Positions 8,601 through 42,102 of a stretch of 64,000 bases of DNA are shown here, one piece after another. Both the position numbers and the translations under genes were made by a program. Each line of letters opens with the position of its first letter. The first letter of the stretch is position 1. The notes under the pieces are model-generated. The model saw only the letters and a program-made list of their open reading frames with translations. It did not search any database and had not been told where the DNA came from. The stretch covers positions 49,724,001 through 49,788,000 of the forward strand of contig NW_025964361.1 in assembly GCF_023055435.1 (NCBI RefSeq), written 5' to 3'. This DNA is from Haliotis rufescens. Its lineage: Eukaryota.

Positions 8601-9652
8601 ACCTAGAAGATATTCATATGTCATAAAATAAATATTATGTTTAATTATTATGAATGACAGCACAATGTACTAGGCCCTCGCTGTCATCAATGTCAGGAAT
8701 AAATATTGACTGTCAATTACGACTGTCTGTTATTAATCGAGTCTGGAACAAACAGTCCATTGATTGACATTATGAACATCGATCTACGCTTTTGGAATAC
8801 GATGTCAGCGAGCTTGATCACCCGATTCCGTTTGTATGCTCTTAGGACAAGCATGGCGATTTTAACCCGGATCTTCACGTGGTTCAATGACAATATTTAC
8901 TCATCATGAACTTTATTCCTTTAATATGTATCCGGGGCCAAGTATCACAGCAAATTAAGTGTCACGTGAGATCTGACCTTCTTATGCCTGACCAATCAAT
9001 TGAATAGGTTTTGTGGTCCATAAAAAATCTGTAGTCAGTATAGTTACAGGATCGTTGATCCACATAATATGAACAGTTTGTGATAGATTTGTGATTTCAA
9101 ACCTTTATTCTTATTTGTCAGAGTTATTGGCTCAAAAGTAGTGGAGTCACATTGGAATTTGATTCGGTATTGTGTGCAGTTAAAATTAGCGGAATCAGTG
9201 GTTGGTTATCCAATGTACAGGTTCAATGCCATCTGTCTGATATTTAGCTCATATTACATGTAAAAACCGTGAAAGGACAGCATTGCGACGCGAGTGAGGT
9301 TAAATCTCACATCAAACATCATCGACGTTCTTCTTGTGGAAGGTGGACCACTTAATAGGGCACATGGGAGGCAGGTAAGCAGCATTAGCGGGGGATTTCA
9401 GCTGGAGGGGTTAGGACGCTCGGAAGCTTGATTCCAAGAGATTCCAGGTTCCGGCCGATATAAAACACAGCTTCACAGTTTACAAAACGCTTCTGTTCAC
9501 ACATCGGCGTATGGGTACCCGGAAGGATGATATTGTCAACTGATTGATGTCTGCCATACATCGTTGGTTGTAGACTTATGTGGAAGCAAGAGAAGAAATT
9601 TGTATTCTCACTGACCCACTGATGCGTCGACAGAAGTAATAACTTTATTAAC

Positions 9653-10045
9653 AGTAGATAGAAAGTAATACCTTCCGGACAAAAGCATTCCTGTGGAGCG
9701 TGGAGTACCAACAAAAGCATTCCTGTGGAGCATAGAATTTCCAACAAATTCCTGTGGAGCATAGACTTTCCAACAAAAGCATTCCTGGGGAGCATAGAAT
9801 TTCCAACAAAAGCATTCCTGTTACCTTCCGGACAAAAGCAGTCCTGTGGAGCGTGGAATTTCCAACAAAAGCATTCCTGTGGAGCGTGGAATTTCCAACA
9901 AAAGCATTCCTGTGGAACGTGGAATTTCCAAGAAAAGCATTCCTGTGGAGCAGCATTTCTATGGAGCGTAGAGTAAAGAAACAAACAAAAGCATTCTTGT
10001 GAAGCATACCATAGAGGCCAGTCAATACCTTTCACACAATAGAAG
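9653..10045 (+). repeat. Left terminal inverted repeat with 33-bp tandem subrepeats
   Basis: Imperfect reverse complement of 19396-19679. Subrepeat unit CAAAAGCATTCCTGTGGAGCGTGGAATTTCCAA. Confidence 0.9.
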
Positions 10046-10270
10046 TTAACAATAACATTCCAGGATCAACGTTTCAACCACTAATAAAATGTATGTTGCG
10101 ACGAATACTCAGTAACCAATGAAACGCTAAAGGAAGTCAAGGTACACTAATGAAATTCAACTTTATAGAAGTTAAGCTGTGTTTAACTGTTGAAGCTTTC
10201 ATTCGAGCTTAAACAGCGATCTTGTCAACAAGACGAAATCTTCACGCCAGTATACATCTTGAATCTGATC

Positions 10271-10780
10271 ATGGGAACCCGAACAACTGACAAGTTTGTA
10301 TTTTTTTACACCAGAACTTCAGTGTTTAGTCAACATTTTTCTACTGAGATTGTTATCCAAGGAATAGCATTTAACTGTGCTGAGCAGTATTACATGTATA
10401 AAAAAGCTTGTATGTTCAGAGATTGGGAAACTGCGCATAAGATTTTAAAGTGTGTTTCTGCCACCGAACAAAAACGTTTAGGTAGAAGTGTGAGATGTTT
10501 TAATCAATGCCAATGGGATGCTGTGAGTTCCAATGTGGTGTATGCAGCATCTTCAGCTAAATTCACAAAGTCTGTTTTTCTGAAGAAACAACTGTTAGAC
10601 ACTTTTCCCAAGATCTTGGTACAAGCGAGTCCGTATGATCGTGTGTGGGGTGTGGGTCTATCACTGCATGACCCTAATATTCTTAATCCATCTAAATGGA
10701 AAGGCAGCAATAGACTTGGTCAGATCTTAATGATGGTTAGAAATGAAATAATGAACACAGAGCCAAGTGAAAACTTATGA
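10271..10780 (+). CDS. NADAR/YbiA-family (DUF1768) hydrolase, Maverick cargo gene
   Basis: Motifs FFY...FSQ, FNCAEQYYMYKKA, QKRLGR, LVQASPYDRVWGVG and KWKGSNRLGQILMMVR. ATG at 10271, 169 aa. The usual E of EASP reads Q here. Confidence 0.88.
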   Translation: MGTRTTDKFVFFYTRTSVFSQHFSTEIVIQGIAFNCAEQYYMYKKACMFRDWETAHKILKCVSATEQKRLGRSVRCFNQCQWDAVSSNVVYAASSAKFTKSVFLKKQLLDTFPKILVQASPYDRVWGVGLSLHDPNILNPSKWKGSNRLGQILMMVRNEIMNTEPSENL

Positions 10781-10909
10781 CTTTAAATGTGTTACAGTGA
10801 TGTAACTTGCTATTTTGAACAGAGGCAAGAAAACTACATTCTACTCGTGGAAGCAGGTCATGCGGATGCCACACACTCTAAATGAGCCAGTCATAACAAG
10901 ATTGCCTGA

Positions 10910-11374
10910 GTGGTTAGGGAAGAATGCGCGAAAGATGCAAAGAGAAAATTTAAAGACGCTGATGAAGTGGATATGGCTACAAAACTGAAACATGCAGAGG
11001 ATCTTCTCACGTTGAGTTACTCTTTAGAAGTGAGTAAAACGATCAGCCAGCTCGTGTGTGAAATGTGTATTCCTTGTCTGTTTAATGAAGAAGGTGATCC
11101 AATCTTTTTGGGAGAACATTCTTGTCGAATGACGGAGCAGGAGCAGGTGGATAAATACTTCAACGCGGCACTTGAGGATGCGGACAATGAACTGGTAATA
11201 GGAAAATGGATGAAACTTGTGACTGATGATCCAGATCTGTGCACAATGCCTGCTTTCCATTTAGTACCTTACCAGTGTAAGGACTATCGTGACAATACAT
11301 TCAAATCACCCGAATGGGTGAATGGTTTGAAGCAATGCGTTGTAAAAATGTTGAAGTTGCAAAAACGCTTGTAG
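10910..11374 (+). CDS. Hypothetical Maverick protein (154 aa, Cys/His cluster; start uncertain)
   Basis: Open in both copies and followed by AATAAA at ~11450. The ORF-track start is a GTG; a possible acceptor (TTTTGAACAG) lies at ~10822. Confidence 0.55.
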   Translation: MVREECAKDAKRKFKDADEVDMATKLKHAEDLLTLSYSLEVSKTISQLVCEMCIPCLFNEEGDPIFLGEHSCRMTEQEQVDKYFNAALEDADNELVIGKWMKLVTDDPDLCTMPAFHLVPYQCKDYRDNTFKSPEWVNGLKQCVVKMLKLQKRL

Positions 11375-11554
11375 ACTGTTTCCATGTCATATTATTCTAT
11401 CAGTACCAAATGAAACGTGTGTGTGTACTTTAGCAATGTCCATACTATGAATAAAACATAAATTATGCTTACATCTTTGTTTGTCTTCTTTTGATAGTTA
11501 TCAAATGGTTGTTCTTTAATAGGTGTCTGTTGTCAGAGCTTCTCTCATTTCAAC

Positions 11555-12693
11555 ATGAAGCCACAACAGAGAAAGGTGGTAACAAAAAAACAGGAGAAGA
11601 TGTTAGAAAGTTACTATTTTAACCCGCTTGAACCGGGGGCTTTTTATGGTCCTGAGAAGCTTTATAGCGTTCTGAAATTAGCTCGTCAACCAGATCTCAG
11701 ACTGAGCACTGTGAAACGTTTTCTGAACAAACAGGACGCCTACAGTTTACACAAGCCACCCAAACAGAGATTCAAGAGGCTGAGAGTTCGGGTGAATTCT
11801 ATAAATGAAATGTTTGATGTAGATTTGACCGACATGACTCGTTACAGCAAGGAGAATAATGATGTGCGCTATTTACTGGTGACTATTGACATACTGAGTA
11901 GGTTTGCTTTCGCCCTGCCTTTAACAAATAAGAGACCAGAGACAGTACTGAAAGCTTTCAAAGAAATAATTCAGGAACGAAATCCAATGGAAGTGCGTGT
12001 GGATGGTGGTTCAGAGTTTAAAGGAGTATTTAAAGATTTTTTTAGAAAAACACAATATCACTCTGACTGTTGCACATAACGAAAATATCAAAAGTAATTA
12101 TGTGGAACGATTCAACAGAACACTGAAATCACTTATTACGCATTACTTGACCCATAATAACACCAAGTATTATTTAGATGCACTGCCCAAGTTGATGGAC
12201 AATTATAATAACACCTTACATTCTTCTTTGCCCAACCTTTCTCCAGTTCAAGTCAAGAAGAAGAATGAACTGAAAGTATGGGAACATTTGTATGTGAAGC
12301 CGTTGTTACTTAAAAAAAGCTCCAAACACTCAAAGCTCAAAGTCATTTGTATTTAAAGTAGGGGATCTTGTTCGCATTCCATACCTCCAGAGACCTTTCA
12401 GTAAGGAACTTGATCTGAAGTGGACTCAGGAGCTGTTTAAGGTGGCTAGGCGATACAAGAGACAAGAGATAGCACAGTATCAGATAGAAGACTTTCCCGA
12501 TAAACTGATGGAAGGTACGTTTTATGCCAACGAGCTACAAAAGGTGGAGAAAAAGGAAAATGTCTTGTGGCAGGTAGAGAAGATTTTAAAGAGAAAACGT
12601 GTGAAAGGGAAGACCTACCTGTTAGTGAGGTGGTTGGGCTGGCAGAGTTCCTTTGATTCTTATGTGGAGGAAAGTGAACTGAAAGATATCTGA
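11555..12693 (+). pseudogene. Polinton-type retroviral-like (rve, DDE) integrase with C-terminal chromodomain; two frameshifts
   Basis: Motifs YYFNP..PGAF, FL.KQDAYSLHKP, FDVDLTDM, LVTIDILSRFAF, VDGGSEF, YVERFNRTLK, FKVGDLVRI, and chromodomain WQVEKIL...YLLVRWLGW..SFDSYV. Frameshifts at ~12040 and ~12335. Confidence 0.92.
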
Positions 12694-13120
12694 TGGAAAC
12701 GTAAATATTTAGCAAAAGCTCAGACTCCAAACACTCTTATTTTAACGAGAATACGCCTTATCATTTTCGTGTCAAACTAAATCAAAGGTTGAATTTTGAT
12801 GGATTCTGGGTTGTGTCTTTAACGGAGAATAATTTTGGTAAATTTGACATCACCCACCTGAATGATCCATATGTGGACGTGTTATGCAATCTGTGTGATA
12901 GTTCTTTGGCAGGTGAACAGCAATTGCCTTTATTGAGACGGCTTGATCTCAGACAAGGTCCTTACTATAGCTTTGCCCATGAATACAATATTCCGATTAA
13001 AGTCAAAGAATCTCCACACATAGAGGTGCGTATAAAGGCCAGTAACGGCATGTCACCCTCTTTCTAAAGGAAGTGACATATGTGACACTGCACTTGAGAC
13101 GGTATCCCTTCGTTGATTAA
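12693..13120 (+). pseudogene. Minor capsid protein (penton, single jelly roll; PX-like)
   Basis: Two-copy consensus METYIFIKSSDSK..YFNENTPYHFRVKL..RLNFDGFWVVSLTEI...LPLLRRL...YNIPIK...VTLHLRR matches the Polinton mCP pattern. Copy 1 has TAA at codon 4 and a frameshift at ~13061. Confidence 0.72.
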
Positions 13121-13122
13121 CC

Positions 13123-13444
13123 ATGGAGTCCACACCTTTGCATGTTCCCGATTATGTCAAATGGAACATCTGCCTTAGTGAATGGTAAACCACAGGTGAA
13201 AGTGATCCCGACACGACTTCAAGTGAAGACCGAAGAACCCAAGATCAAACTGGAAGTGACATCAGAGATGCAGAATATTGTTGAGAGAGGCAATGCCAAA
13301 GAAAAGCGACGGAAATCTTTAAAACGAGCTGCAGGTGATCGAATCACCACTTCAAAGAAGATCCGTCAGACAGATAACATTCCATCCAAGACCGCTAAGG
13401 TTCTCCAGTGTATCCCTGTTCGAGAAAACGACGTTTTCAGTTAA
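13123..13444 (+). pseudogene. Small basic Polinton-type protein (YVPD..KW..YF N-terminus), possibly a virion core protein
   Basis: Lys/Arg-rich and located between mCP and MCP. Copy 1 has a ~29-bp deletion relative to copy 2. Confidence 0.5.
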
Positions 13445-13446
13445 TC

Positions 13447-14749
13447 ATGTCACTATTGAATGATAAAGACTTTGAGGAACTGATACCGCCCTCTCTCAAT
13501 CTGTTTATTTTACCACCATACCAGACCAGCATCCATCAACATTATTTTGATGAAGTGCGACCACTCAGCCAAATCAATGATTCTTCACCGTTGGAATTTC
13601 AAGTAACGAATGCTGGAAGTGATTACATTGACCTGAACCGTACCCGCCTACATGTGAAGCTCAAGGTGAAACATGCAGATGGCACTGATCTTGTTGACAA
13701 GGAACATATTGTCCCTGTCAACTTGTTTCTGCAGGCCCTCTTTTCCCAGGTGTCAGTGTACCTGCAGAATCAGTTGGTATCTTCTACAAACAACCATTAT
13801 GCTTACAAGAGCATGATGAAAACTCTACTCAACAATGGAACAGAAGCTAAAACTTCACAGCTGTCATCTCAACGCTTCTACAAAGATGTGTCTGAATCCA
13901 ACAATGATGGCGAATCGACTGATCCCTACACTGGTCTCAATACAGGAGTGCAATCTCGTGGCGGTTTCATTAATACTAGTAAAGTCTTGACCATGTCGGG
14001 GCCATTGTATGAAGATATCTTTCACATGAACAGACATTTGGTCAATGGAGTGGATTTGACAATGAAGCTGTACCGCTCCTCGCCCCAGTTCTGTTTGATG
14101 AGTGGCAAAACAGGTCAAGATTACAAGGTGGAAATTCTGGATACCTACCTGAAGGTGTGTAAACTGAAAGTCAATCCAGCTCTTATTTTGGCACACAACA
14201 CCTTGTTTCAAGACAGCAATGCTTTGTATCCTTACACCAAAAGTGAGGGTCAAGGTTACAAGCATCCCCACCACTCAACTGACACATACCATTGACAATC
14301 TGTCGAATCCTATTGCTAATCGTTACATCGTAGGCTTTGTACTCAGCAACAGCTTGAATGGATCTTACACTGGTAACCCCTGCAACTTCCAATCTAGTAT
14401 GGTGAAAAACATCAGCCTGTACATCAATGGTGCCAGTGTCCCCGGACGTCCCATGCAGGCAGATGACGTTGAGTCCTATGTGCAGATGTTCGATGGGATG
14501 TGTCTGTGGAAAGAAAATACAGGAAACGGAATCACTCGGAGCGACATTTTGCTCGGGAGTGCCCTGTTCGTCTTCGACATTGATAAAGTATGCAGTGAAT
14601 CCGACTATCTGAATCTGTTGAAATCCGGTAGCACCCGACTAGAAATCGAGTTCAAATCCGCCCTCACCGAAACACACAGTTGTGTTGTTCTGAGTGAAAG
14701 AAATTCCCTCATCGAAATTGACAAGACCAGGAACGTGTTTGTGAAGTAA
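13447..14749 (+). pseudogene. Major capsid protein (double jelly roll, PY-like); +1 frameshift at ~14250
   Basis: Motifs SLNLF.LPPYQTSI, PLEFQV, DYIDL..TRLHVKLKV, PVNLFLQALFSQVSVYL, YAYK, GNP.NFQ, LFVFD and GSTRLEIEF...IEIDKTRNV. About 433 aa once repaired. Confidence 0.9.
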
Positions 14750-14754
14750 AAAAC

Positions 14755-15225
14755 ATGAAAGCCTCTGACCTTGCATGTGCTATTCAAAGCGACTCCATCT
14801 TAAAGGACCATGTCTTAGGTGTGTTTGCCAAAGATACCTCACCTGTGCTAACTAGAGTCATGCTTGCACGTGGAGTGGGTCTCATTGTCAATACTGAACC
14901 ATCTGGAAGACCGGGTCGTCACTGGGTGGCTATGTACTTCAAAGGAAATACAGGGGAACTCTTTGACAGTCTGGGTTAGCCAGTGAATTCCGTTTTTGAT
15001 TTGTACTTAAAAACCTATGTCAATCAATACCAGCACAACAGAAGACAATTACAGTCCTCATCATCCAACCTTTGTGGTCATTATTGTTTATATTATTTGT
15101 TGTATAAATGCAAAACAGATCTTACCCTTCAAACCCTTGTGCAGATATTCGATGTGCAAGTCCGTTTTAACAATGATGAGCATGTGTCAAAGTTTATCTG
15201 TAATTATTTTAGATATTGTTTGTAA
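14755..15225 (+). pseudogene. Adenain-like cysteine (maturation) protease; in-frame TAG at 14977-14979
   Basis: Motifs LGVFAKD, IVNT.PS..PG.HWVA, FDSLG and LQ...S.LCGHYC supply the His/Asp/Gln/Cys catalytic set. Confidence 0.9.
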
Positions 15226-15321
15226 TCTTGTCATACCTGTGTCATGTAACATACTACTGTACTTGTGTAACCCATTAAAAAAATGAAATAAAAAAATTAG
15301 AGTAGTCATTCGAGTTTGTTC

Positions 15322-15327
15322 TATAAA
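15322..15327 (+). promoter_or_regulatory. TATA box upstream of the ATPase gene
   Basis: TATAAA ~60 bp before ATG 15383 and just after the AATAAA that follows PRO. A 26-bp deletion removes it in copy 2. Confidence 0.45.
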
Positions 15328-15382
15328 TATAAGTAACTCAGCTGTATTGTCACAGTTGAATTATTGTGCTCAGAGTGAGATC

Positions 15383-16052
15383 ATGGAACGTAAGTGTCTC
15401 TTACCAATACAAACACCTACCAACATATCTGTGATTGGTGGATCTTCCTCAGGGAAAACAGTTTGGGTGAAAAGGTTGTTAGAGCAAGCTAATCTGATGT
15501 TTGACAAACCTCCCAACCTTATTGTGTACTGCTATGCCGTATGGCAAGACATCTACAGTGACATGCAGCAAAACATTTCTAACATTCTTTTTATGGATTC
15601 CCTTCCAACTGAGAATGATTTGAAAATGTGGTCTGAGCAATCTGAAAAGAACATGGTGTTGGTCATGGATGACATGATGATGAATATATGTAAAAGTCCA
15701 CTGATGTTAAATCTCTATCTACACTACATTGTCTCATCATTGGGGAATCAGTGTTATAAATATTCAACAGTCTGCTTATCCTAAGGGGGATTGTAACCGA
15801 ACTATTTCCTTGAATACACACTACTTCATTAAGCTATCTAACCCACGTTCTGCACATGAATATAAAATCTTGGCATCTCAAATATTTCCAGGACAAGTCA
15901 AATATTTTACTGAATCATTTCGTGATGCAGTGGAGGGAAAGAAATTTCAATATTTTATGATTGACGTATCACCCTATTCCGATCCTCAGTATGGGCGTCT
16001 GCGCAGTGGTGTCTTTCCAGATGAAGTATGTATTGTGTACCAACCCAAATAA
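15383..16052 (+). pseudogene. A32/FtsK-HerA-type DNA packaging ATPase; 4-bp insertion frameshift at ~15716
   Basis: Walker A GGSSSGKT, Walker B VLVMDD, then SHH..ISVINIQQ, RTISLNTHY and Y..IDVSP...RLR. Confidence 0.9.
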
Positions 16053-16127
16053 AAGCTACTGCTGAAAGTTATACCCACCAGTTGCCCGTATTACCAATGA
16101 ACAGATCAGTTGCTTACTGAGGTCATC

Positions 16128-16439
16128 ATGGATGTTTGCGGACGATTTGAAGATATTGCTAACGATTGTTCAGTGATTTCAACCAATGCTGAAGTGTATG
16201 GGGATAGCTTTTGTGAGAGATTAAAGGCCTTCACCAGTTGGCCCGTGCAAATGAAACAGTCTCTGAAGACTATGGCACAAGCAGGATTCATTTACACGGG
16301 TCAATCAGATAAAGTCTACTGTTTCATGTGTCGATTGCGTGTAAATAAATGGATGCCAGAAGATGAACCACTAACTGAACATTTCAGGTTATCACCTCAG
16401 TGTAGTTACATAAACATGATAGCTTCTAATACCAAATGA
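16128..16439 (+). CDS. Single-BIR inhibitor-of-apoptosis-like protein, Maverick cargo gene
   Basis: ERLKAFTSWP...MAQAGFIYTGQSDKVYCFMC...W...DEPLTEHFRLSPQC is a complete CX2C-X16-H-X6-C BIR. No RING domain. Open in both copies. Confidence 0.9.
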   Translation: MDVCGRFEDIANDCSVISTNAEVYGDSFCERLKAFTSWPVQMKQSLKTMAQAGFIYTGQSDKVYCFMCRLRVNKWMPEDEPLTEHFRLSPQCSYINMIASNTK

Positions 16440-16546
16440 GAGACATCGGCTATGGTGTATGAGGAATATTAGGGTCTAAGCATACATATATAAAAGTCAC
16501 AATAACCTAGTTAGATCATTTCACATCGTGATCTCTTCACATCAAT

Positions 16547-17012
16547 ATGGGTGATTTACTGGAAAAACATCTGTCTTTTCTTCAGACACTACTGCAGGCT
16601 AATGTGAAGCAGGGAAAAAGCTTTACTTCAATATGTTTCATGTGAACAAATGCATGCTATCAATACCATGATGTTAAACATTTTGAAAGGGAATATTCCG
16701 CTCTCACTGATGGATAAAACTCGCTTGCACCGTCATAGGTTTCACATTAGAACATTGGCTGCCAAAGAAGGTTTTACCAATCGGATTAAAAAGGAGGTGT
16801 TGATAAGACATCATTCGATCTTGCCTATTTGCATTGCTGCACTGTTAGATTACCTACATCATGAGCAGACCTATGGTTCTCCTGAACAGGAACACATACC
16901 AACGCCTGATAGACAACCAGGAAAAGGAGAAGACAGCGACTCAGGAACAACAACAACAACAGATAATGACAGTGACTCCGGACCGGGAGACGAGTCCTCT
17001 GAGACTGAATGA
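16547..17012 (+). pseudogene. Conserved Polinton-type small protein (LNILKGNIPL motif); frameshift at ~16615
   Basis: TATAAAA at 16489-16495 and ATG at 16547. The N-terminus is intact in copy 2 (40422). Confidence 0.55.
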
Positions 17013-17472
17013 GACCCCTGAAGAAATCACCCATGATGAAGCACAGATTAAAGCGAATACGACCTTGATTCTGGATCTACTTCTTAAGGATGTGTCATTA
17101 ACTAAAAAGATTGGCAAACTCACCAAACTATGGTAATTTATCAGGGATCAGATCAGAAACGCTCACTTCAGACTGAATGATCAGTTAGAAATTGTGTTAG
17201 ATAATGAGAATGTGTGGATCGGAACTAAGGTTATTGACCTCATTCGTTTTACTGTGATGCATCGTGGGGCTGTTCCTACAGGCTACCGTGACTTTCTCAA
17301 ACTTTTAAAAATGCTCCATGTACCAAAGCGGCTTTTGTATAAGCCAGATGCAAAGAAACAGAACGACAAAATAAAGAAGGCAAAATCATCTTTATATCTA
17401 AAACGACAAGCACAACATGGTGTGCCCGGTGCTAACACTACTGCAAAATTAAGAAAAGTAGAGTCTTTCTAA
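16861..17472 (+). pseudogene. Conserved Polinton-type hypothetical protein (~203 aa); TAA at 17134-17136
   Basis: MSRPMVLL...Y..L N-terminus and ..IGT.VIDL..P.GY..F.KLL C-terminus. The stop is TAC in copy 2. AATAAA at ~17531. Confidence 0.55.
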
Positions 17473-17557
17473 CTGTACATGCACATTGAATTCATGACAT
17501 GTATTCTATGTAACTTTCTGATTGTAAAACAATAAAATAATGCTAACACATGCGTCT

Positions 17558-17866
17558 TTAATTATTACTATCTTCCATGTTCATGAGGACTCTGAGCTGC
17601 ATCTCAAGTCTTTCTTTTCTGTCATCACAGAAGAAATGCCTATGCATATAATCAGAGTCACTGTAACGCACAGTGTGCTGGTCCTGAAACTCTAGCCCAA
17701 GGCTTACCCTCTGTTGCTTGGGTTTTTCCAAGATGGTATGAAGGGGCAGCTCATTCACTGCACAATCAAAGTATTGAGTAATACACTCGTCACAAACTAT
17801 ACATTTTGGAGCTCTATAGAAATATAAGTTCAAACTTAAGTGCAAACAGCTGCACACAATGAACAT
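17558..17866 (-). CDS. Hypothetical Cys-containing protein or terminal exon (C..C..C)
   Basis: Open and nearly identical in both copies. An acceptor-like TATTTCTATAG precedes APKC, so it may be a spliced exon. Confidence 0.4.
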   Translation of the reverse strand: MFIVCSCLHLSLNLYFYRAPKCIVCDECITQYFDCAVNELPLHTILEKPKQQRVSLGLEFQDQHTVRYSDSDYMHRHFFCDDRKERLEMQLRVLMNMEDSNN

Positions 17867-18111
17867 GAGTGGTGTGGCTGCTATTCAAAACAGTTTCAGA
17901 TTGCTTCAAGACAGATGTATCAAGCGGGTGTATAATAGGGTAGTACTAAGAACTGCTGAATCACCTTGACCGAGTACACAAGCTATACAATATTTTTGAG
18001 AAAATGTTTACCATGGGATGGTACTGAAAACGTGACACTTTAAAAGCACATGTGTTCCATTATGAAAGACTACGTTAAAGGGATACACTTAATGAAAGAG
18101 CCGTATGGAGA

Positions 18112-18328
18112 GGTGGTGTGGTGAAATTGGGTTTAACGTCGCGTCCAAGATTATTGCACTTATATAGCGACGTGCATGCACGTGTGTGTGTGTGTATGTG
18201 TGTGTGTGTGGCTGCTTGTACTAGTCCGGACTGATGCCGATTTATAGTGCTAGCTCACTGAGATACCATGCCGCAGTTTAACATGAATACCCCACTCAGA
18301 CACAGTATACTGACTCCGAGCCGACCAG
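18112..18328 (-). mobile_element. Truncated SINE-like insertion with (GT)n inside the Maverick (copy 2 at ~41994-42219)
   Basis: GGTG-repeat tail plus TTGGGTTTAACGTC, like the other SINE tails. The internal TTTATAGTGCTAGCTCACTG...ATACTGACTCCGAGCCGACCAG resembles a mollusc SINE core as I recall it (not searched). Confidence 0.6.
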
Positions 18329-19395
18329 ATTTACACCGAACAAGCACGTCACACACTCCAATTTCGCTATGCATCTCACTGTGTTTTCTAACATAAAAGC
18401 ATATTTTTAATCAGAATGTGTGTATGTTTTATGTTTCAATTCACAGTTATTCGCTCTCTTGGTCTATCAATGTGATATGAGCCACTAGTGTGATACGAGT
18501 TACCTCCCTTGGATCACGAGGGCAGGCCGCTCGCTTCACCCGCCTTTCGGTGTATGTATTCATGCAAGCCAGCGTTCATTGTTTCTTCACTGTCAATAGT
18601 GTATTACCTCCCTTACACCGGTAAGCCCTATCGTTTACAGGTTTCTGGTGTAGCCGAACGGTTTGACCATTGTTTTTCCAGCTAAGTTTACTACATGATG
18701 ATATATAAGAAGAAATTAAATCCAGCCATGTACAATTGATGGAATAAATATGATTAAACCAAATATGAACTGAGCGAATGGTTAATTCAAACGGAATATA
18801 TGGAGGAATGATTAATGAAACAGTGTTGTACAGTCTTAAGGTAAGTTCACTTATTTTCATTATTACTATTACATCAATTAGTTATATGTCATAAAGCAGA
18901 AAACATACGAATTACACATCTGCAGATGGGTATAATGTATACTTTCTACTCAAGTTCTAATATAATGGCGAAAACAAGTAACAGTGATATTATCTAGTTG
19001 GTGATCGTCTAAAAGCAACATTTAACCCTTAATGTTACGTTAGCACACTGAAACAGATAAAAAGTTAAAGAGTGATAGAAATGTTAATAGATAAAGGTTA
19101 ATAGATAAAGGTTAATGAATACCGCTCTGAACAATAACATAATATTTTAACACTTAGTGAAACGTGAATGAAGTAGAGAAAAATGTTTATAAATGAATTG
19201 ACATCGGTGAAAGGGTGAACAGGTTCAGCGGCTAAAACCCACACACGAATAGATTCACTCTTGCGTGTAAAGAGTGGGTGAGAGAGAGCTACCCCTAGTG
19301 TATTGATACTAATGTGCGGTGACATAGTTACATGTTTGAACAGAGCGATTATATACAGAGCCAGCCTTACTGCTAGTCTCCTTTAGCAAAATTTG

Positions 19396-19679
19396 CTTCT
19401 ATTGTGTGATTTGACTGGCCTCTGTGGTATGCTCCACAAGAATGCTTTTGTTTGTTTCTTTACTCTACGCTCCATAGGAATGCTTTTGTTTGTTTCTTTA
19501 CTCTACGCTCCACAGAAATGCTTTTGTTAGAAATTCCACGCTCCACAGGAATGCTTTTGATGGAAATTCCATGCTCCACAGGAATTTGTTGAAATTCTAT
19601 GCTCCACAGGAATGCTTTTGTTGGTACTCCACGCTCCACAGGAATGCTTTTGTCCGGAAGGTACTACTTTCTATCTACT
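19396..19679 (-). repeat. Right terminal inverted repeat
   Basis: Inverted match to 9653-10045 with fewer 33-bp subrepeats. Confidence 0.9.
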
Positions 19680-20906
19680 ATTAACCACAAGGTGTAAGGG
19701 ACAGATGGTGAAATGATCAATGTGTTCACTTCATTTAAATTGATGAGTGCATATCTGAAAGGTCAGGTCGGTACTTTGTTTTCATTTATAAAAAAATCAG
19801 AGACTTCTTCGTGACTTACACTTCATTACACCGAACAAGCACGTCACACACTTCAATTTCGCTATGCATTCTGTATTAGTCATATTAACTGCAGACACAC
19901 TACACAATCGAACTATATGCATGTGCTATGTACAGATACAGTTATGTCAACAGGTATAACGGTATAAGGTATAAAGGTCCATTGGTCATGGAAGTTCTAT
20001 GAGCACTGCTACGTGTCTATTCCCAAATTGAAACGATAGGCTAATCCAGAAATCTGAATCTAAAACATCTTAGTGTGAAACCAACAAACAACTAACAAGT
20101 GGTATTCAATCAACGAATGAATTATACTATTAACTTAGTTAACAAATCAATATAAATTACAGCACAGCAATTACAATGGCAGAAAACAAAAGAGTGGTTG
20201 TACAATATTCAATGGCAATAACTAATACGATGGCAGTGGTCAGAATCAAATAGAAAATTACAGTGGTGATGGAAAAAGTCAGTGATACTAATATATATTC
20301 ACCCAGCGGCCACGGTGGTCAAGTTTCCAAGATGGGCGAGCCAGGGAATCGGGAATAATGAGCGATCCTCACATGAAAGCTGGTGCGAGACGAGATGAAA
20401 TGCGTGCGAGACGAAATATGTGAGAGATCCAAAAGTGTGAGAGATGTGTAAACACGCTACTGTCCCCTTATGAACTGTCCAAATCGGTTCCTAAACACCA
20501 CAGAATATTTCATACCAGGTCACGGTAAACCGGAAGTTTACACACAAAACTAGTATCTAAATATAGTAGCTTCCTGACGACTGCTTAGATGAAATAGTAC
20601 TACATTCCTGAGGACTATCACTTCCGAAATATATTGTAATTAGCGGCTACCGAATCTCTACAGAAACGAGGTAAAACCACTGTTAAACAACAAAATAAAC
20701 TGCAATATAACAGCGTGATGAACCAAACTACATAAGATTTGTAAGATGTAAATGATGCAAGCACCGTTTCGTGTCCCGACATACTCAGGTAACCGCGACA
20801 CTGCTGTCAGTGTAAAAGCCGCTTTGAAAAAAGAATTTTTTGGCAGTGTTAATGAATGAACAAGACTGAATGAGCAGATTCCCCGAACAGAACATTTTGG
20901 ATAAAG

Positions 20907-21569
20907 CCTCAGGAGTCTGACTGCCGAACGCCGTCACCCACCCAACTACACTCTACTAAAGTCACACCATGTTCCTCAGGAGTCTGACTGCCGAACGCCG
21001 TCACCCACCCAACTACACTCTACTAACGTCACACCATGTTCCTCATGTGTCAGGCTGCCGAGCGCTGTCACCCACCCAACTACACTCTACTAACGATACA
21101 CCATGTTCCTCAGGAGTCAGGCTGCCGAACGCCGTCATCCACTCAACTACACTCTACTAAAGATACACCATGTCCCTCAGGTGTCAGCCTGCCAAACGCA
21201 GTCACCCACTCAACTACACTCTACTAACGTCAATCCATGTCCCTCGGGAGTCGGGCTGCCGAACGCCGTCACCCACCCAACTACACTCTACTAACGTTAC
21301 ACCATGTCCCTCAGGTGTCAGGCTGCCGCACGCAGTCACCCATCCAACTACACTCTTCTAACGTTACACCATGTCCCTCAGGTGTCAGGCTGCCGCACGC
21401 AGTCACCCATCCAACTACACTCTTCTAACGATACACCATGTCCCTCAGGTGTCAGGCTGCCGAACGCGGTCACCCATCCAACTACACTCTTCTAACGATA
21501 CACCATGTCCCTCGGATGTCAGGCTGTCGAACGCGGTCACCCATCCAAATACACTGCGCAACTAACGTT
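20907..21569. repeat. 67-bp minisatellite, ~10 copies
   Basis: Unit CCATGTTCCTCAGGTGTCAGGCTGCCGAACGCAGTCACCCATCCAACTACACTCTACTAACGTTACA; ORF-track starts are spaced 67 bp apart. Confidence 0.95.
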
Positions 21570-26090: not shown

Positions 26091-28562
26091 TTAGAATAAG
26101 GCTGCGGGATCAGCGTTGAGGATACGCTGACACAGATGTGTCCAGAACTGGGGGTGTTCCTCCACGTCCAGAATGTGTTCCTCTGAAACCACGTTGAGGA
26201 GAAAATGAGGAACTCGAGCTCTCGCTGCCAAGGACATATCCCTGTACAGAAGCAGGACCCGGTCCGTGATTGCGTTGTTCACGGACATCAGTTTGACAAT
26301 AGACAGGACAGTAAAGTGTATCCATTCGTCTCTCAGGAAGTTCTCTGTAAGCACGATAACAATCTTCCAACTTCTCGACAAAGCATCAATGGTCGCTTCA
26401 GCATGGGAATACCCTACAGGTTCATGTACGTCGGGCAGGTACAGTCTTATACCAGGGGGGACCTTTTGGAGCTCCTTGAAGAGACAATGACATGGCCAAT
26501 GATACTCAGCACTTTCATAGCATATGTAGGCATCATAATCAAAATCCTCCCTTTGTGGTCGGCGTCTTGGGTTATAACCAAGGATATCCAATTCGCGGTA
26601 TTCTATTATGGGGAAATATTTCTTGAAAAGAAAAGCTACAAGTAAAGACAACAGTGCAATTAAGTTTCCAACTATGGCCATCGCCAACCAGAACTGACCA
26701 ACACATGTTCTCCACTGTAATGTCCTGCTTGCATAAAAGGTAGCTGTATCAGACAACGTTCCATCACCAAGGATGCAGCTGTAGTTACCATGGTGATCTA
26801 AAGTGACATCAGTTTCAAGTAACCATTGTATGAAGTGAAGAGTTCCACAGCTACAGCTGAAGATGTTGCCTGTTAGGTAGAGGTAGAACGAACCGTTATT
26901 CACAACAAAGTCATCGAGCATTGTCTGTTGCTGTTTACTGATGACTGACAGGGAATTCGATGTCATATCCAAATGTTTGAGCCTAGCCATCATCAGGATT
27001 TCTTCTGGTACGTCATCCAGTCGATTTCGTGCAAGAGAAAGGTTTTCCAATTTGTTAAAGTTTCTCAATGTATTTTTGTTGATAAGCTGTAGATTATTGC
27101 CTGACAAATCGAGTCTTGTTAGTTTGGGCATGACATGGAAAAAAGGTTCAGATGGGGACACAAACATGTCTTCATCTGACGTCACATCATGAACAAGCAA
27201 TGTTTGGAGATTCGTCACCATGTTGGTGTTGTTGAATACATTCTGACTGATCTTCATATGGGATATGTCCAAGAGTTTCAGGTTTTTACAGCATTCTAAA
27301 TATGACGGAATGTCTAAAAGATCATTTCTAGAGAAATCTAACACAGATAGAGGATCGCTTTGTGTCAGTGTTAAACTGATATACAAATGGTAAGAACTGG
27401 AACATCTGCTGAGGTTTAAATAACTTAGATTAGGAGGTATGGGAAAATACACCCCTCCTCGTTTTGTGGTATTATATTTGTTACTGAGAGAAAAGATCAA
27501 TTTTGTACCCCGAGACAAATCCAGATATTTCAGATTTACCATCATGTACATATTTTTTGCAGCAGGGGGCAATTTATCATTCAACAAGTTTTGAGACAAG
27601 TCTAGATATTCGATACATCTGAAGAAAGTCGAATTGGTTATGGCATTATCATTAATTTGTGTAATCTTATTATGAGACATGTCTAGCTTTTTCACACATA
27701 TATCTGCAAGATAACCGAACATCTCCTCTGTTAGAGTCACACTGCTTTCTCCTGTGGTAACAACTCGAGACAGTATTATTTCCTCCATATGTCTTCCAGC
27801 CAAACACTGAAGAGCTCTTGTTATGGAGACGAACTTGGTCGTGCTTCCATGCGAGAGGCCAATTAGCAAATTGGTTAGGTTCTTAAAAGGACAAAATGCT
27901 CCTGCTTCTATATTTCTAACAACACCGTTGAAATTTAATATTTTAAGTGGAATATCACGCAAAGCTTGAAAGGTTGTGTTTCCAATAACAGGTATACCTA
28001 TGGTATTGATATTCAGAAGTGTGAGGGTGTCTTTCAACTGTTCTAGTTGAGGCCATTTTCCGTCTTTAGGCCAGGAGTTAATACGGATCTCTTCTAGACT
28101 TTTTAGACCTTGGACGATATCAGTAGGGAATTGTCCTTCGTTATTTATACTTCCTAACAGAACCAATTGCCTCAGACTAACCAAATACTGGAACAGTCCA
28201 TCTGGGTATGTTGTCGTGTCCAATGAAAGCGTGTCACAAGACATTTCCAAGACTTCCAGTTTACCAAGACCTTTGAAAGCATCTCTCTGCAGTATCTTTA
28301 GCGGATTGGCACTCAGATAAAGGAATCTGAGGTTACTTAAAGTGCTAAAACTGTTGTTGGATATTCGGGTGAGAAGATTATCTTGTAAATCCAAACCTAC
28401 AATGTCCTTTGGAAGATCTGATGGCACTTGAGTGAGATTCTGTCTTTGACAGTCGGTGACGTTACCCTGGTAGGCTGCACTAAAACTGGTGTGACAGCCA
28501 CTGACAGAGATGCATGTTGCATCCGTCATCAGCAGGAGAAACATAAACATTTCCACGTGCAT
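26091..28562 (-). CDS. Toll-like receptor TLR-B, intact, ~823 aa, single-cysteine-cluster type
   Basis: Signal-like N-terminus, LRRNT (DC...LTQVP..LP), many LxxLxLxxN repeats, LRRCT (NIFSCSC...W...YSC...C), TM (FWLAMAIVGNLIALLSLLVAFLF), and TIR with box 1 FDYDAYICY and box 3 FW. Confidence 0.93.
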   Translation of the reverse strand: MHVEMFMFLLLMTDATCISVSGCHTSFSAAYQGNVTDCQRQNLTQVPSDLPKDIVGLDLQDNLLTRISNNSFSTLSNLRFLYLSANPLKILQRDAFKGLGKLEVLEMSCDTLSLDTTTYPDGLFQYLVSLRQLVLLGSINNEGQFPTDIVQGLKSLEEIRINSWPKDGKWPQLEQLKDTLTLLNINTIGIPVIGNTTFQALRDIPLKILNFNGVVRNIEAGAFCPFKNLTNLLIGLSHGSTTKFVSITRALQCLAGRHMEEIILSRVVTTGESSVTLTEEMFGYLADICVKKLDMSHNKITQINDNAITNSTFFRCIEYLDLSQNLLNDKLPPAAKNMYMMVNLKYLDLSRGTKLIFSLSNKYNTTKRGGVYFPIPPNLSYLNLSRCSSSYHLYISLTLTQSDPLSVLDFSRNDLLDIPSYLECCKNLKLLDISHMKISQNVFNNTNMVTNLQTLLVHDVTSDEDMFVSPSEPFFHVMPKLTRLDLSGNNLQLINKNTLRNFNKLENLSLARNRLDDVPEEILMMARLKHLDMTSNSLSVISKQQQTMLDDFVVNNGSFYLYLTGNIFSCSCGTLHFIQWLLETDVTLDHHGNYSCILGDGTLSDTATFYASRTLQWRTCVGQFWLAMAIVGNLIALLSLLVAFLFKKYFPIIEYRELDILGYNPRRRPQREDFDYDAYICYESAEYHWPCHCLFKELQKVPPGIRLYLPDVHEPVGYSHAEATIDALSRSWKIVIVLTENFLRDEWIHFTVLSIVKLMSVNNAITDRVLLLYRDMSLAARARVPHFLLNVVSEEHILDVEEHPQFWTHLCQRILNADPAALF

Positions 28563-30274
28563 TATTTCTGAAACACAATGACAGCACATCAAGAGGAAGA
28601 AAGTTAACTGTATGGACACATTTATTATGGATTAATGAATTAATTTGACTTTAGATCACGTTAAACTTGCATGTTAAGGGAGTGAGCGAGTTGGGTTTAA
28701 GGCCCCTTTGAACAGTCTTACAGCTATATAATGGCGTGTCAGCTTGATGTGGGGATTGGAACCCATGATCATTGTTTTTGTAGGTGTTTTTGTTTGTTTG
28801 TTGCTTAGCACCGCACTCAGCAATAGACCAGCTATAGTCCAGCTATATGATGTCGGTCTGTAAATAATCGAGTCGGGACCAGACAACCCTGTGATTGTTT
28901 TGGGGTGTCACAAAGGGACTCAATTCAATTGCGGTGCCTCAGACGACTGCATGTTACATGTTGCGCGTTACATGTTGTGCGTTGCATGTTAAGAAGTTAC
29001 ATGATCACATAAAATACCAATCAAAACAAATAACATTAAACTGAGCTTGTGAAAAACTTGCAGATAAACGAAAACAAATTTTGTCAGTGATTGTTTTCTA
29101 AAATTTAATGATTTAAAATTCTGACAAGAAATACCATTATTACAAAATTGTTAAAATTCAAAAAAAAAACCCACACAAACATTACACGTTGTTAGGATTC
29201 GCCTACTGATTTTAACGTATTTCCAAAATCAACGAATATATCTAAAATTTACTTCGTGCTAAACAAACTTAGTTTTTATTTGATATTCACATTCTTTTAA
29301 TTCTATATGTTTCGGTATCCTTTTTGTTTAATAAAGTCAAACGTTATAAAATTGCCTTCCTTCTGGAACCACTTCACCATCAATACACCACTGGTTTGTA
29401 TGACCTGTTAAAATCCGGTGTGTCTTTATATAATTCAAGGGAATTCAAAACATAAACGCTTGAGAAGATATTCTACAAATGCTGTCAAGCGAGAAACATT
29501 TCTCTTTTGCTATGTAAGTTGAGCGCCCATTGTTCGCACCTGAAACCAGGTCACATAACAACTTGACGGGTGCTCGATGAATGTTGCCCATACAAAACTC
29601 TTAAGAGTTGTATGAATAGATCTTCTCAAGGCATGCTGGTCAACTCATGTGTTTTCCCCGCAATGCAACAAAATATACTAGCGTGACCTTCAATATACTT
29701 GAGAAAATACACCAGTTCAAACCTAGGATCACCAATCATTCTAAATTGACAAGAGTTCGTAAAATATTAGAGCATGTCCAGTATTTCTGTCTATCTCCGT
29801 CACTCAGTGTATCTGTCTTCCTGACTCTGTGTCTCTCTGTACCTACATGTGGCTGTCTCCCACTTCAAATATTTCGTACGATCTATTATGTTGCTTTATA
29901 ACATGTTACGTATATTACGTTACGAGCCGATGTTCATCACACTGATCATGATGTACTACGCAATTAGGGCACATATATTTGACACAGACACATGCATATA
30001 CACTCACTGATACAGCGTACAGGTAACTGGCTATTTAGCTCTCTTTGTCTACCTATTAATGAATAATAAGTTTTTGTAAAAATCGTGACCTTTTACTTAA
30101 TATCTATATCATCATTACCAAAACATGTTTAAATGATTTTTCATATAAATATCGTTTAGATGAGCAAACACTAACCTAATGTTTAGTAAATATATCATTT
30201 GTCTACTTACCAAACTTGTCCAGTATTTCAGACCGATAATTATCATGATAATAGGCATCACTAGGTGATCATGG

Positions 30275-33550: not shown

Positions 33551-33943
33551 AGTAGATAGAAAGTAATACCTTCCGGACAAAAGCATTCCTGTGGAGCGTG
33601 GAGTACCAACAAAAGCATTCCTGTGGAGCATAGAATTTCCAACAAATTCCTGTGGAGCATAGACTTTCCAACAAAAGCATTCCTGGGGAGCATAGAATTT
33701 CCAACAAAAGCATTCCTGTTACCTTCCGGACAAAAGCATTCCTGTGGAGCGTGGAATTTCCAACAAAAGCATTCCTGTGGAGCGTGGAATTTCCAACAAA
33801 AGCATTCCTGTTGAGCGTCGAATTTCCAACAAAAGCATTCCTGTGGAGCAGCATTTCTATGGAGCGTAGAGTAAAAAAACAAACAAAAGCATTCTTGTGA
33901 AGCATACCACAGTGGCCAGTCAATACCTTTCACACAATAGAAG
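33551..33943 (+). repeat. Left TIR, copy 2
   Basis: Inverted match to 43296-43579; 33-bp subrepeats. Confidence 0.9.
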
Positions 33944-34168
33944 TTAACAATAACATTCCAGGATCAACGTTTCAACCACTAATAAAATGTATGTTGCGAC
34001 GATTACTCAGTAACCAATGAAACGCTAAAGGAAGTCAAAGTACACTAATGAAATTCAACTTTATAGAAGTTAAGCAGTGTTTAACTGTTGAAGCTTTCAT
34101 TCGAGCTTAAACAGCGATCTTGTCAACAAGACGAAATCTTCACGCCAGTATACATCTTGAATCTGATC

Positions 34169-34654
34169 ATGGGAACCCGAACAACTGACAAGTTTGTATT
34201 TTTTTACACCAGAACTTCAGTGTTTAGTCAACATTTTTCTACTGAGATTGTTATCCAAGGAATAGCATTTAACTGTGCTGAGCAGTATTACATGTATAAA
34301 AAAGCTTGTATGTTCAGAGATTGGGAAACTGCGCATACGATTTTAAAGTGTGTTTCTGCCACCGAACAAAAACGTTTAGGTAGAAGTGTGAGATGTTTTA
34401 ATCAACGCCAATGGGATGCTGTGAGTTCCAGTGTGGTGTATGCAGCGTCTTCAGCTAAATTCACACCGTCTGTTTTTCTGAAGAAACAACTGTTAGACAC
34501 GAGTCCGTATGATCGTGTGTGGGGTGTGGGTCTATCACTGCATGACCCTAATATTCTTAATCCATCTAAATGGAAAGGCAGTAATAGACTTGGTCAGATC
34601 TTAATGATGGTTAGAAATGAAATAATGAACACAGAGCCAAGTGAAAACTTATGA
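34169..34654 (+). CDS. NADAR/YbiA-family protein, copy 2, with a 24-bp in-frame deletion (FPKILVQA); probably inactive
   Basis: Same motifs as 10271-10780; the deletion removes the strand leading into SPYD..WG. Confidence 0.8.
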   Translation: MGTRTTDKFVFFYTRTSVFSQHFSTEIVIQGIAFNCAEQYYMYKKACMFRDWETAHTILKCVSATEQKRLGRSVRCFNQRQWDAVSSSVVYAASSAKFTPSVFLKKQLLDTSPYDRVWGVGLSLHDPNILNPSKWKGSNRLGQILMMVRNEIMNTEPSENL

Positions 34655-34783
34655 CTTTAAATGTGTTACAGTGATGTAACTTGCTATTTTGAACAGAGGC
34701 AAGAAAACTACATTCTACTCGTGGAAGCAGGTCATGCGGATGCCACACACTCTAAATGAGCCAGTCATAACAAGATCACCTGA

Positions 34784-35248
34784 GTGGTTAGGGAAGAATG
34801 CGCGAAAGATACAAAGAGAAAATTTAAAGACGCTGATAAAGTGGATATGGCTACAAAACTGAAACATGCAGAGGATCTTCTCACGTTGAGTTACTCTTTA
34901 GAAGTGAGTAAAACGATCAGCCAGCTCGTGTGTGTAATGTGTATTCCTTGTCTGTTTAATGAAGAAGGTGATCCAATCTTTTTGGGAGAACATTCTTGTC
35001 GCATGACGGAGCAGGAGCAGGTGGATAAATACTTCAACGCGGCACTTGAGGATGCGGACAATGAACTGGTAATAGGAAAATGGATGAAACTTGTGACTGA
35101 TGCTCCAGATCTGTGCACAATGGCTGCTTTCCATTTAGTACCTTACCAGTGTAAGGACTATCGTGACAATACATTCAAATCACCCGAATGGGTGAATGGT
35201 TTGAAGCAATGCGTTGTAAAAATGTTGAAGTTGCAAAAACGCTTGTAG
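34784..35248 (+). CDS. Hypothetical Maverick protein, copy 2
   Basis: Paralog of 10910-11374. Confidence 0.55.
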   Translation: MVREECAKDTKRKFKDADKVDMATKLKHAEDLLTLSYSLEVSKTISQLVCVMCIPCLFNEEGDPIFLGEHSCRMTEQEQVDKYFNAALEDADNELVIGKWMKLVTDAPDLCTMAAFHLVPYQCKDYRDNTFKSPEWVNGLKQCVVKMLKLQKRL

Positions 35249-35428
35249 ACTGTTTCCATGTCATATTATTCTATCAGTACCAAATGAAATGTGTGTGTGT
35301 ACGTTAGCAATGTCCATACTATGAATAAAACATAAATTATGCTTACATCTTTGTTTGTCTTCTTTTGATAGTTATCAAATGGTTGTTCTTTAATAGGTGT
35401 CTGTTGTCGGAGCTTCTCTCATTTCAAC

Positions 35429-36564
35429 ATGAAGCCACAACAGAGAAAGGTGGTAACAAAGAAACAGGAGAAGATGTTAGAAAGTTACTATTTTAACCCG
35501 CTTGAACCGTGGGCTTTTTATGGTCCTGAGAAACTTCATAGCGTTCTGAAATAAGCTCGTCAGCCAGATCTCAGACCGAGCACTGTGAAACGTTTTCTGA
35601 ACAAACAGGACGCCTACAGTTTACACAAGCCACCCAAACAGAGATTCAAGAGGCTGAGAGTTCGGGTGAATTCTATAAATGAAATGTTTGATGTAGATTT
35701 GACCGACATGACTCGTTACAGCAAGGAGAATAATGGTGTGCGCTATTTACTGGTGGCTATTGACATACTGAGTAGGTTTGCTTTCGCCCTGCCTTTAACA
35801 AATAAGAGACAGAGACAATACTGAAAGCTTTCAAAGAAATAATTCAGGAACGAAATCCAATGGAATTGCGTGTGGATGGTGGTTCAGAGTTTAAAGGAGT
35901 ATTTAAAGATTTTTTAGAAAAACACAATATCACTCTGACTGTTGCACATAACGAAAATATCAAAAGTAATTATGTGGAACGATTCAACAGAACACTGAAA
36001 TCACTTATTACGCGTTACTTGACCCGTAATAACACCAAGTATTATTTAGATGCACTGCCCAAATTGATGGACAATTATAATAACACCTTACATTCTTCTT
36101 TGCCCAACCTTTCTCCAGTTCAAGTCAAGAAGAAGAATGAACTGAAAGTATGGGAACATTTGTATGTGAAGCCGTTGTTACTTAAAAAAAGCTCCAAGCA
36201 CAACAGGTCAAAGTCATTTGTATTTAAAGTAGGGGACCTTGTTCGCATTCCATACCTCCGGAGACCTTTCAGTAAGGAACTTGATCTGAAGTGGACTCAG
36301 GAGCTGTTTAAGGTGGCTAGGCGATACAAGAGACAAGAGATAGCACAGTATAAGATCCAAGACTTTCCCGATAAACTGATAGAAGGTATGTTTTATGCCA
36401 ACGAGCTACAAAAGGTGGAGAAAAAGGAAACTGTCTTGTGGCAGGTAGAGAAGATTTTAAAGAGAAAACGTGTGAAAGGGAAGACCTATCTGTTAGTGAG
36501 GTGGTTGGGCTGGCAGAGTTCCTTCGATTCTTATGTGGAGGAAAGTGAACTAAAAGATATCTGA
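35429..36564 (+). pseudogene. Integrase-chromodomain, copy 2 (TAA at ~35552, frameshift at ~35810)
   Basis: Same motifs as copy 1, with lesions at different positions. Confidence 0.92.
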
Positions 36565-36992
36565 TTGAAAGGTACATATTTATCAAAAACTCAGACTCCA
36601 AACAATCTTATTTTAACGAGAATACGCCTTATCATTTTCGTGTCAAACTATATCAAAGGTTGATTTTTGATGGATTCTGGGTTGTGTCTTTAACGGAGAT
36701 TAATTTTGGTAAACTTGACATCACCCACCTGAATGATCCATATGTGAACGTGTTATGCAATCTGTGTGATAGTTCTTTGGCAGGTGAACAGCAGTTGCCT
36801 TTATTGAGACGGCTTGATCTCAGACAAGGTCCTTACTATAGCTTTGCCCATGATTACAATATTCCGATTAAAGTCAAAGAATCTCCACACATAGAGGTGC
36901 GTATAAAGGCCAGTAACGGCATGTCACCCTCATTTCTAAAGGAAGTGACATATGTGACAATGCACTTGAGACGGTATCCCTTCGTTGATTAA
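36564..36992 (+). pseudogene. Minor capsid protein, copy 2 (start ATG mutated to ATT, frame otherwise open)
   Basis: Paralog of 12693-13120. Confidence 0.72.
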
Positions 36993-36994
36993 CC

Positions 36995-37324
36995 ATGGAG
37001 TCCACACCTTTGTATGTTCCCGATTATGTCAAATGGACCCACTATTTCAAGAAACACATGAAAGGAACATCTGCCTTAGTGAATGGTAAACCAAAGGTGA
37101 AAGTGATCCCGACACGACTTCAAGTGAAGACCGAAGAACCCAAGATCAAACTGGAAGTGACATCAGAGATGCAGAATATTGTTGAGAGAGCCAATGCCAA
37201 AGAAAAGCGACGGAAATCTTTAAAACGAGCTGCAGGTGATCGAATCACCACTTCAAAGAAGATCCGTCAGACAGATAACATTCCATCCAAGACCGCTAAG
37301 GTTCTCCAGTGTATCCCTGTTTGA
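36995..37324 (+). CDS. Small basic Polinton-type protein, copy 2 (C-terminus shortened by CGA>TGA)
   Basis: MESTPLYVPDYVKWTHYFKKH...; Lys/Arg-rich. Confidence 0.55.
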   Translation: MESTPLYVPDYVKWTHYFKKHMKGTSALVNGKPKVKVIPTRLQVKTEEPKIKLEVTSEMQNIVERANAKEKRRKSLKRAAGDRITTSKKIRQTDNIPSKTAKVLQCIPV

Positions 37325-37347
37325 GAAAACAACGTTTTCAGTTAATC

Positions 37348-38650: not shown

Positions 38651-38655
38651 AAAAC

Positions 38656-39126: not shown

Positions 39127-39257
39127 TCTTGTCATACCTGTGTCATGTAATATACTACTGTACTTGTGTAACCCATTAAAAAAATGAAATAAAAAAATTA
39201 GAGTAGTCATTCGAGTTTGTATTGTCACAGTTGAATTATTGTGCTCAGAGTGAGATC

Positions 39258-39927: not shown

Positions 39928-40002
39928 AAGCTACTGCTGAAAGTTATACCCACCAGTTGCCCGTATTACCAATGAACAGATCAGTTGCTGAATGAGGTCA
40001 TC

Positions 40003-42064: not shown

Positions 42065-42102
<38 letters not shown>

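Follow-up and report, generated by a model that had tools for sequence, protein, structure and literature searches.

A Polinton insertion and its genes

We analysed a 64,000-nucleotide stretch of the Haliotis rufescens genome (NCBI RefSeq assembly GCF_023055435.1, contig NW_025964361.1, forward-strand positions 49,724,001 to 49,788,000), hereafter the window, in which an element of 10,027 bp related to the Polinton/Maverick transposons lies at 9653-19679 inside an array of TLR genes. The element is a non-autonomous Polinton derivative that is now a fossil, and comparison with its relatives indicates that its gene for the protein-primed B-type DNA polymerase (pPolB) was almost certainly lost by an internal deletion.

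The element begins with AG at 9653 and ends with CT at 19679. Its terminal inverted repeats (TIRs; left, 9653-10025, plus strand; right, 19411-19679, minus strand) have arms with 98% complementarity in their outer 94 nt, and internal repeats of 29-38 bp extend to about 10025 and about 19411. The hexamer ATTAAC flanks the element on both sides (9647-9652 and 19680-19685), whereas a third, paralogous TLR unit without the element holds ATTAAC only once (60080-60085), and this empty site therefore proves the target-site duplication (TSD). An earlier note made from the window sequence had reported the AG...CT termini, the TIRs, the 6-bp TSD and the location inside a TLR array, and we confirmed all of them. 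Absent from that note were a minus-strand gene remnant (17558-17793), a host repeat (18113-18328) and a second copy of the insertion (33551-43579, plus strand), which is 1.6% diverged and arose by tandem duplication of a 24-kb TLR unit. In a self-comparison of the window, this second copy lies inside a 21-kb tandem duplication with the same flanks and TSD; the two window copies thus represent one insertion, and we ruled out that the second was independent.

Eleven genes on the plus strand follow the left TIR. The first is a NADAR gene with an open frame (10271-10780; Pfam PF08719, E = 3.6e-43; alignment to 8bau and YbiA), and next to it stands a conserved unknown gene (10860-11374), which encodes 192 aa in full-length copies and is partly deleted and frameshifted here. 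The integrase gene (11555-12693; two frameshifts) combines an rve domain (PF00665, over the cut-off) with a C-terminal chromo domain. A putative minor capsid protein gene, assigned by position only, occupies 12693-13120 (frameshift and stop; no Pfam or PHROG match for the 142-aa gene) and is followed by a gene for a small basic protein (13123-13444; frameshift). The major capsid protein (MCP) gene (13447-14749) is broken in the window copy; in a full-length copy its product is predicted to form a double jelly-roll (predicted local distance difference test, pLDDT: 83), for which the best solved matches are the MCPs of mavirus and PBCV-1 (E = 7e-16). An adenovirus-like cysteine protease gene (14755-15249; two stops) and an A32-type packaging ATPase gene (15383-16052; one frameshift) come next; in a full-length copy, the ATPase passes the Pox_A32 cut-off, and the protease stays below that of Peptidase_C5 (E = 0.017). 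A gene encoding a single BIR domain (16128-16439; PF00653, E = 3.1e-22) has retained an open frame, and two further conserved unknown genes, of 151 aa (16547-17012; frameshift) and 200 aa (16861-17472; internal stop) in full-length copies, complete the series. Identical or near-identical database entries for the family's proteins are named from abalone (Haliotis).

The integrase, minor capsid, basic protein, MCP, protease, ATPase and three unknown genes are thus all interrupted in the window copy. The earlier note's NADAR, integrase-chromo and BIR assignments are supported by Pfam, and its reading of the virion genes stands for the MCP, through the predicted fold, and for the ATPase, with the protease reaching only a sub-threshold match. 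Its description of a full virion module needs correction: the genes are present, but the integrase, both capsid genes, the protease and the ATPase carry frameshifts or stops.

The parent family and the polymerase deletion

A genome search with the first 78 bases of the element retrieved 13 two-ended elements of 10.0-21.8 kb at 11 distinct target sites, together with several one-ended copies. All 13 have a TSD of 6 bp, mismatched in one case, and their ends accord with the TIRs of 100-1500 bp and TSDs of 5-8 bp that characterise Polintons. An integrase-DNA search gave 17 loci with at least 94% identity among 39 matches. Such genome searches score the best candidates only, and their counts are lower bounds.

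An alignment with a natural 19.7-kb copy is collinear as far as 17793 of the window and picks up again 5,096 bp later in that copy, with 1 bp of microhomology at the junction (17793-17794). Lost with the missing block are a 1,388-codon minus-strand pPolB gene and, from a 243-codon gene, the initial two thirds; the final 77 codons of the latter are still present in the window (17558-17793, minus strand; residues 167-243 only in tblastn). Among 16 same-family copies, 12 hold 573-1,388 aa of pPolB, four of them as one open frame, and four hold none; the 17th close-integrase copy (contig C2) is truncated and was left out of this scoring. Either pPolB or what is left of it is present at nine of the 11 target sites occupied by two-ended elements, and an additional TIR-bearing copy on contig C46 contains polymerase DNA. 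Because same-TIR copies of 18-22 kb have the polymerase gene exactly at 17793/17794 and the gene is present at these nine sites, we conclude that the polymerase was deleted from an element whose ends are intact and whose autonomous family resides in the same genome.

With the family's own polymerase as the query, no match was found in the whole window (0 of 1,388 aa covered). The DNA at 17794-19410 is fully accounted for otherwise: every part of it aligns with non-coding DNA of the parent, with a host repeat or with flank filler, and no replication protein was found there in place of pPolB. Its first part (17794-18112) is a non-coding segment which full-length copies have upstream of pPolB; there follow the remaining part of a host repeat resembling a short interspersed nuclear element (SINE; 18113-18328) and a filler (18329-18374) for which the right flank (19826-19869) was the template, at a second deletion of about 850 bp that is private to the window locus. 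The earlier note's failure to see any PolB in the element held up against this query, including in the roughly 1.5 kb it had left unassigned (17870-19395), and deletion of pPolB, one of the two options it had offered, is borne out. The search for further same-TIR copies that it had proposed gave a divided answer: 11 sites with distinct TSDs were recovered and nine carry pPolB, but not all do, and a second site lacks it.

Exonuclease and polymerase motifs are present in the 1,388-codon protein. Its predicted fold (pLDDT 92) comes nearest to the protein-primed polymerase of phi29 (E = 1e-19), and a relative with 62% identity reaches 1.9e-22 with DNA_pol_B_2. On this phi29-like model, together with the motifs and the scoring homologue, the protein is a protein-primed PolB. 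The Pfam model DNA_pol_B_2 (PF03175), which the earlier note had recommended as a check, does not score this family's own polymerase and would have misled. A genome search with PF03175 gave 93 matches from the best 86 of 1,124 candidates, none of them in same-TIR copies, and was rejected as a polymerase test since the model is blind to this protein. A sequence search of solved structures and PHROGs with the polymerase returned zinc fingers and endonuclease VII only. C2H2 zinc fingers stand at the N-terminus of the polymerase (L040:1006-5172, minus strand), and its exonuclease domain contains an endonuclease VII insertion.

Other members of the family vary in length and ends. Copies of a younger subfamily on contigs C112, C68, C583, C357, C614 and C423 are 19-22 kb long and 0.5-1.3% apart; in several, a copy of right-arm DNA inside the left end lengthens the TIRs, and two have an additional gene whose long frame is rich in threonine or valine. 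A 10.7-kb copy at C5:710923-721652 shows the opposite loss, with most of the capsid module gone and pPolB remains kept, and its left TIR looks mosaic.

The deleted form at two target sites

Full-length matches to the deletion junction numbered four among 30: the two window copies and one copy on each of contigs C1 and C131. The latter two share a TSD and flanks that are unrelated to those of the window; they therefore represent one second insertion, and counting C131 apart from C1 was ruled out. The junction is identical to the base at both sites with only 1 bp of microhomology. All four deleted copies also contain the SINE-like insertion, which is absent from pPolB-bearing siblings. This insertion, complete in C1 and C131 (about 345 bp with a 13-bp duplication), is a high-copy host repeat (394 candidates genome-wide, the best 40 scored). 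A tRNA origin of the repeat is suggested only by a box-B-like motif; ARAGORN detected no tRNA in the insertion. Three substitutions (11863, 13269 and 16203), up to 6 kb from the junction, are exclusive to the four copies, which group in the tree with a support of 82 inside an older subfamily whose members are 1.9-2.8% apart; the younger subfamily has the polymerase. Public sequencing runs contained junction-crossing pieces without differences in two of four cases (X1, organism A; X8, organism C), each with fewer than 31 letters on one side, and the raw-read run had almost no depth; these pieces were not counted.

Taken together, these alignments show that one deleted, repeat-marked template was ancestral to the insertions in the TLR array and at C1/C131. 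The tract common to both measures 7 kb or more (from 11863 to about 19030), and local conversion around the junction was ruled out, as similarity does not peak there. The second deletion of about 850 bp with its filler was found in no other copy, and since the filler derives from the window's own right flank, this deletion postdates the insertion here.

We counted codon changes column by column against a neutral replacement:silent expectation of 2.6-3.1. The branches of the subfamily carry 38 replacement and 71 silent changes (about 0.2 of neutral). The changes specific to the window (99 replacement, 29 silent) and to C1/C131 (61 replacement, 15 silent) are both compatible with neutrality, and both ratios differ from that of the subfamily branches (Fisher p < 1e-9). 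These counts are compatible with neutral decay of the deleted lineage after insertion at both sites. The stem of the deleted lineage has only three substitutions in about 7.7 kb (one silent, two replacement), as against 27-29 shared later coding changes; with one silent and two replacement changes, it gives no separate period of purifying selection. No break in the integrase, MCP, protease or ATPase genes is common to the window and C1/C131, so the integrase and virion module of the template was unbroken when the insertions split.

The account that we favour, and hold to be probable, is that the window element is an internal-deletion derivative of the 18-22-kb Polinton family and that the deleted form was copied once more in trans by pPolB-bearing siblings. 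The alignments show a single template from which pPolB and two thirds of the adjoining gene had gone and in which the SINE-like repeat had landed. Its intact TIRs could then have served as cis signals and origins for a sibling's terminal protein and pPolB during the subfamily burst; the very short stem places the copying inside that active phase. Recombination with a co-replicating sibling may have exchanged the ends, and an integrase, either its own or the sibling's, would have placed the deleted form at a new site with a new 6-bp duplication. Each insertion decayed neutrally afterwards; the one at the window locus underwent a second deletion, which was patched with flank DNA, and was duplicated with its TLR unit. 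We put forward more tentatively a bolder version, in which a polymerase-less Polinton marked by the host repeat left a chromosome, was replicated in trans by the terminal-protein-fused polymerase of a sibling, swapped both ends with this helper and re-integrated, in the manner of a defective-interfering-type genome, and in which the Polintons of this mollusc lineage would stably carry NADAR and BIR as counter-defence.

Several points weigh against copying in trans. The action of pPolB in trans is a step that we infer, only two events with the deleted form are known, and the genome counts are lower bounds. Support for the deleted group is modest (82) and rests on the three substitutions. The outermost sites and TIR heads of C1/C131 differ from those of the window at both ends and resemble other older copies; recombination is therefore needed in any case, and conversion of the interior of a resident element would account for these ends by one event.

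This last idea is the strongest competitor: the deletion would have occurred at a single locus and then been transferred by ectopic gene conversion or gap repair into a resident element elsewhere, so that the deleted form never transposed. The interior of C1 and C131 matches the window subfamily at 30 and 31 of 33 diagnostic sites, respectively, between ends that are foreign on both sides, and P elements provide a precedent for the replacement of an element through gap repair. Conversion would, however, have had to transfer the entire shared tract of at least 7 kb, in which similarity is no higher near the junction, and to do so before more than a few percent of the time since insertion had elapsed (three stem changes against 27-29). 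Polymerase-bearing copies, C5 among them, have mosaic ends as well. We therefore regard conversion as rather unlikely, though as a serious contender.

The earlier note had also raised the idea of a lasting helper-dependent family, which packages and integrates itself and borrows a polymerase. The occurrence of the deletion at two independent target sites and the lack of a common break in the integrase, MCP, protease or ATPase genes speak for such a satellite. The deletion, however, halves a conserved gene, the stem shows no sign of purifying selection and all later change is neutral; moreover, none of the 17 close integrase loci is a young polymerase-less copy, and the youngest subfamily has pPolB. 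With pPolB at nine of 11 sites, a stem of three substitutions and neutral decay, the idea is highly improbable for a family as such, and survives in a weaker form as the likely copying implied by the junction at a second site. Finally, internal deletions are common in the family, with several copies having lost different blocks (the capsid module in C5), but a purely local deletion or assembly artefact with an independent match at C1/C131 is scarcely credible given that three contigs have in common a base-exact breakpoint, the private substitutions and the insertion of the SINE-like repeat.

Cargo genes, surroundings and known systems

The NADAR and BIR genes are genuine conserved cargo of the parent family rather than of the deleted form. 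Four related Polinton families were examined (C445:42.21-42.23 Mb, C52:0.21-0.23 Mb, C334:29.71-29.73 Mb and C46:2.51-2.53 Mb), with MCPs 52-70% identical and a shuffled module order; BIR is present in two of them and NADAR in one. In cross-family comparisons of NADAR and BIR, silent sites are saturated while replacement divergence is 0.19-0.27, which argues that both genes are useful to active elements. In the window, the conserved last-strand catalytic position of NADAR, as described in the accessible text of PMC11125620, is altered in one copy and deleted in the other. The parts of PMC11125620 and PMC9503650 available to us describe NADARs as enzymes that take ADP-ribose off guanine, with representatives in molluscs and viruses. 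Inhibitors of apoptosis are proteins with BIR domains. A counter-defence role of NADAR against guanine ADP-ribosylation and of BIR against apoptosis, in the sense of the earlier note's putative anti-immune cargo, is plausible as an inference. Our literature search, which included a text search of PMC9503650 and had subscription papers and Repbase outside its scope, found no report placing NADAR in a Polinton. Genome-wide, 119 NADAR-like matches were found, and a cluster of split matches in long frames at C112:19.97-20.08 Mb probably represents multi-exon NADAR genes of the host.

The tandem TLR units at 794-21569 and 24556-45465 of the window carry the Polinton, and the empty site lies in the third unit (50047-61441). 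Of the TLR frames, one is open (846 codons; 26091-28631, minus strand) and the others are interrupted or partial. The TLR parts are about 2-2.5% apart, as against about 7% for the flank of the third unit, and this low divergence suggests conversion among the TLR copies. A 67-bp minisatellite occurs in both duplicated units, with about 10 copies at 20907-21569 and about 33 at 44806-47009. A functional link between the element and the TLR genes was considered and found unsupported: some 4.8 kb separate the element from the TLR frame, and the element is missing from the third unit.

The locus offers a well-resolved case of Polinton decay with probable mobilisation in trans, with an empty site, a breakpoint known to the base and steps that can be dated. 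It suggests that short, seemingly polymerase-less Polintons should first be compared with copies bearing the same TIRs, and it illustrates that Pfam DNA_pol_B_2 overlooks some Polinton polymerases. If copying in trans is true, the polymerase and terminal protein of these elements would be usable in trans, with recombination among co-active copies, and this would bear on Polinton replication and on how Polintons come to carry host repeats. The more lasting lead is the retention of NADAR and BIR by purifying selection in diverged Polinton families of the host.

Non-autonomous Polintons are recorded in Repbase. The parent family resembles Polintons/Mavericks in its TIRs, AG...CT termini, 6-bp TSD, rve integrase, predicted double jelly-roll MCP and A32 ATPase, with a protease match that stays below the cut-off; the window copy differs from a typical Polinton in its length of 10 kb, its lack of pPolB and its broken core genes, and the family in its NADAR and BIR cargo. 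By the definition given in the accessible part of 10.1101/2023.08.22.554363, the parent family is a standard Polinton, and the HNH/endonuclease VII insertion of its pPolB is also described for some Polinton polymerases there and in the accessible text of PMC11161782. In the latter text, terminal protein and polymerase are fused in Polintons. Polinton-like viruses and Tlr elements, as covered there, are similar in combining a capsid module and an integrase without canonical pPolB; they replace pPolB with another replication protein, whereas the window element carries a plain deletion. Of vertebrate Mavericks, 96% are degraded, and in active lineages the core genes are under purifying selection (PMC8097293, in its accessible text); these elements are broken by stops and frameshifts, and that text does not describe a clean polB deletion shared by two sites. 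The accessible parts of 10.1101/2024.01.15.575659, PMC6431247 and 10.1101/2022.07.12.499685 contain no mobile Polinton without polB. Mobile Polintons lacking PolB have, however, already been reported in butterflies (10.1101/2025.02.07.637071): in Pieris mannii and other insects, polB-lacking elements that gained a retroelement were still amplified beside complete relatives. The abalone elements share with those of P. mannii the loss of the polymerase, the gain of a retroelement, the retention of TIRs, insertion at more than one place and the coexistence with complete, polB-bearing relatives within one species, and differ from them in having a short SINE-like repeat, a base-mapped breakpoint, older decayed copies and a mollusc host.

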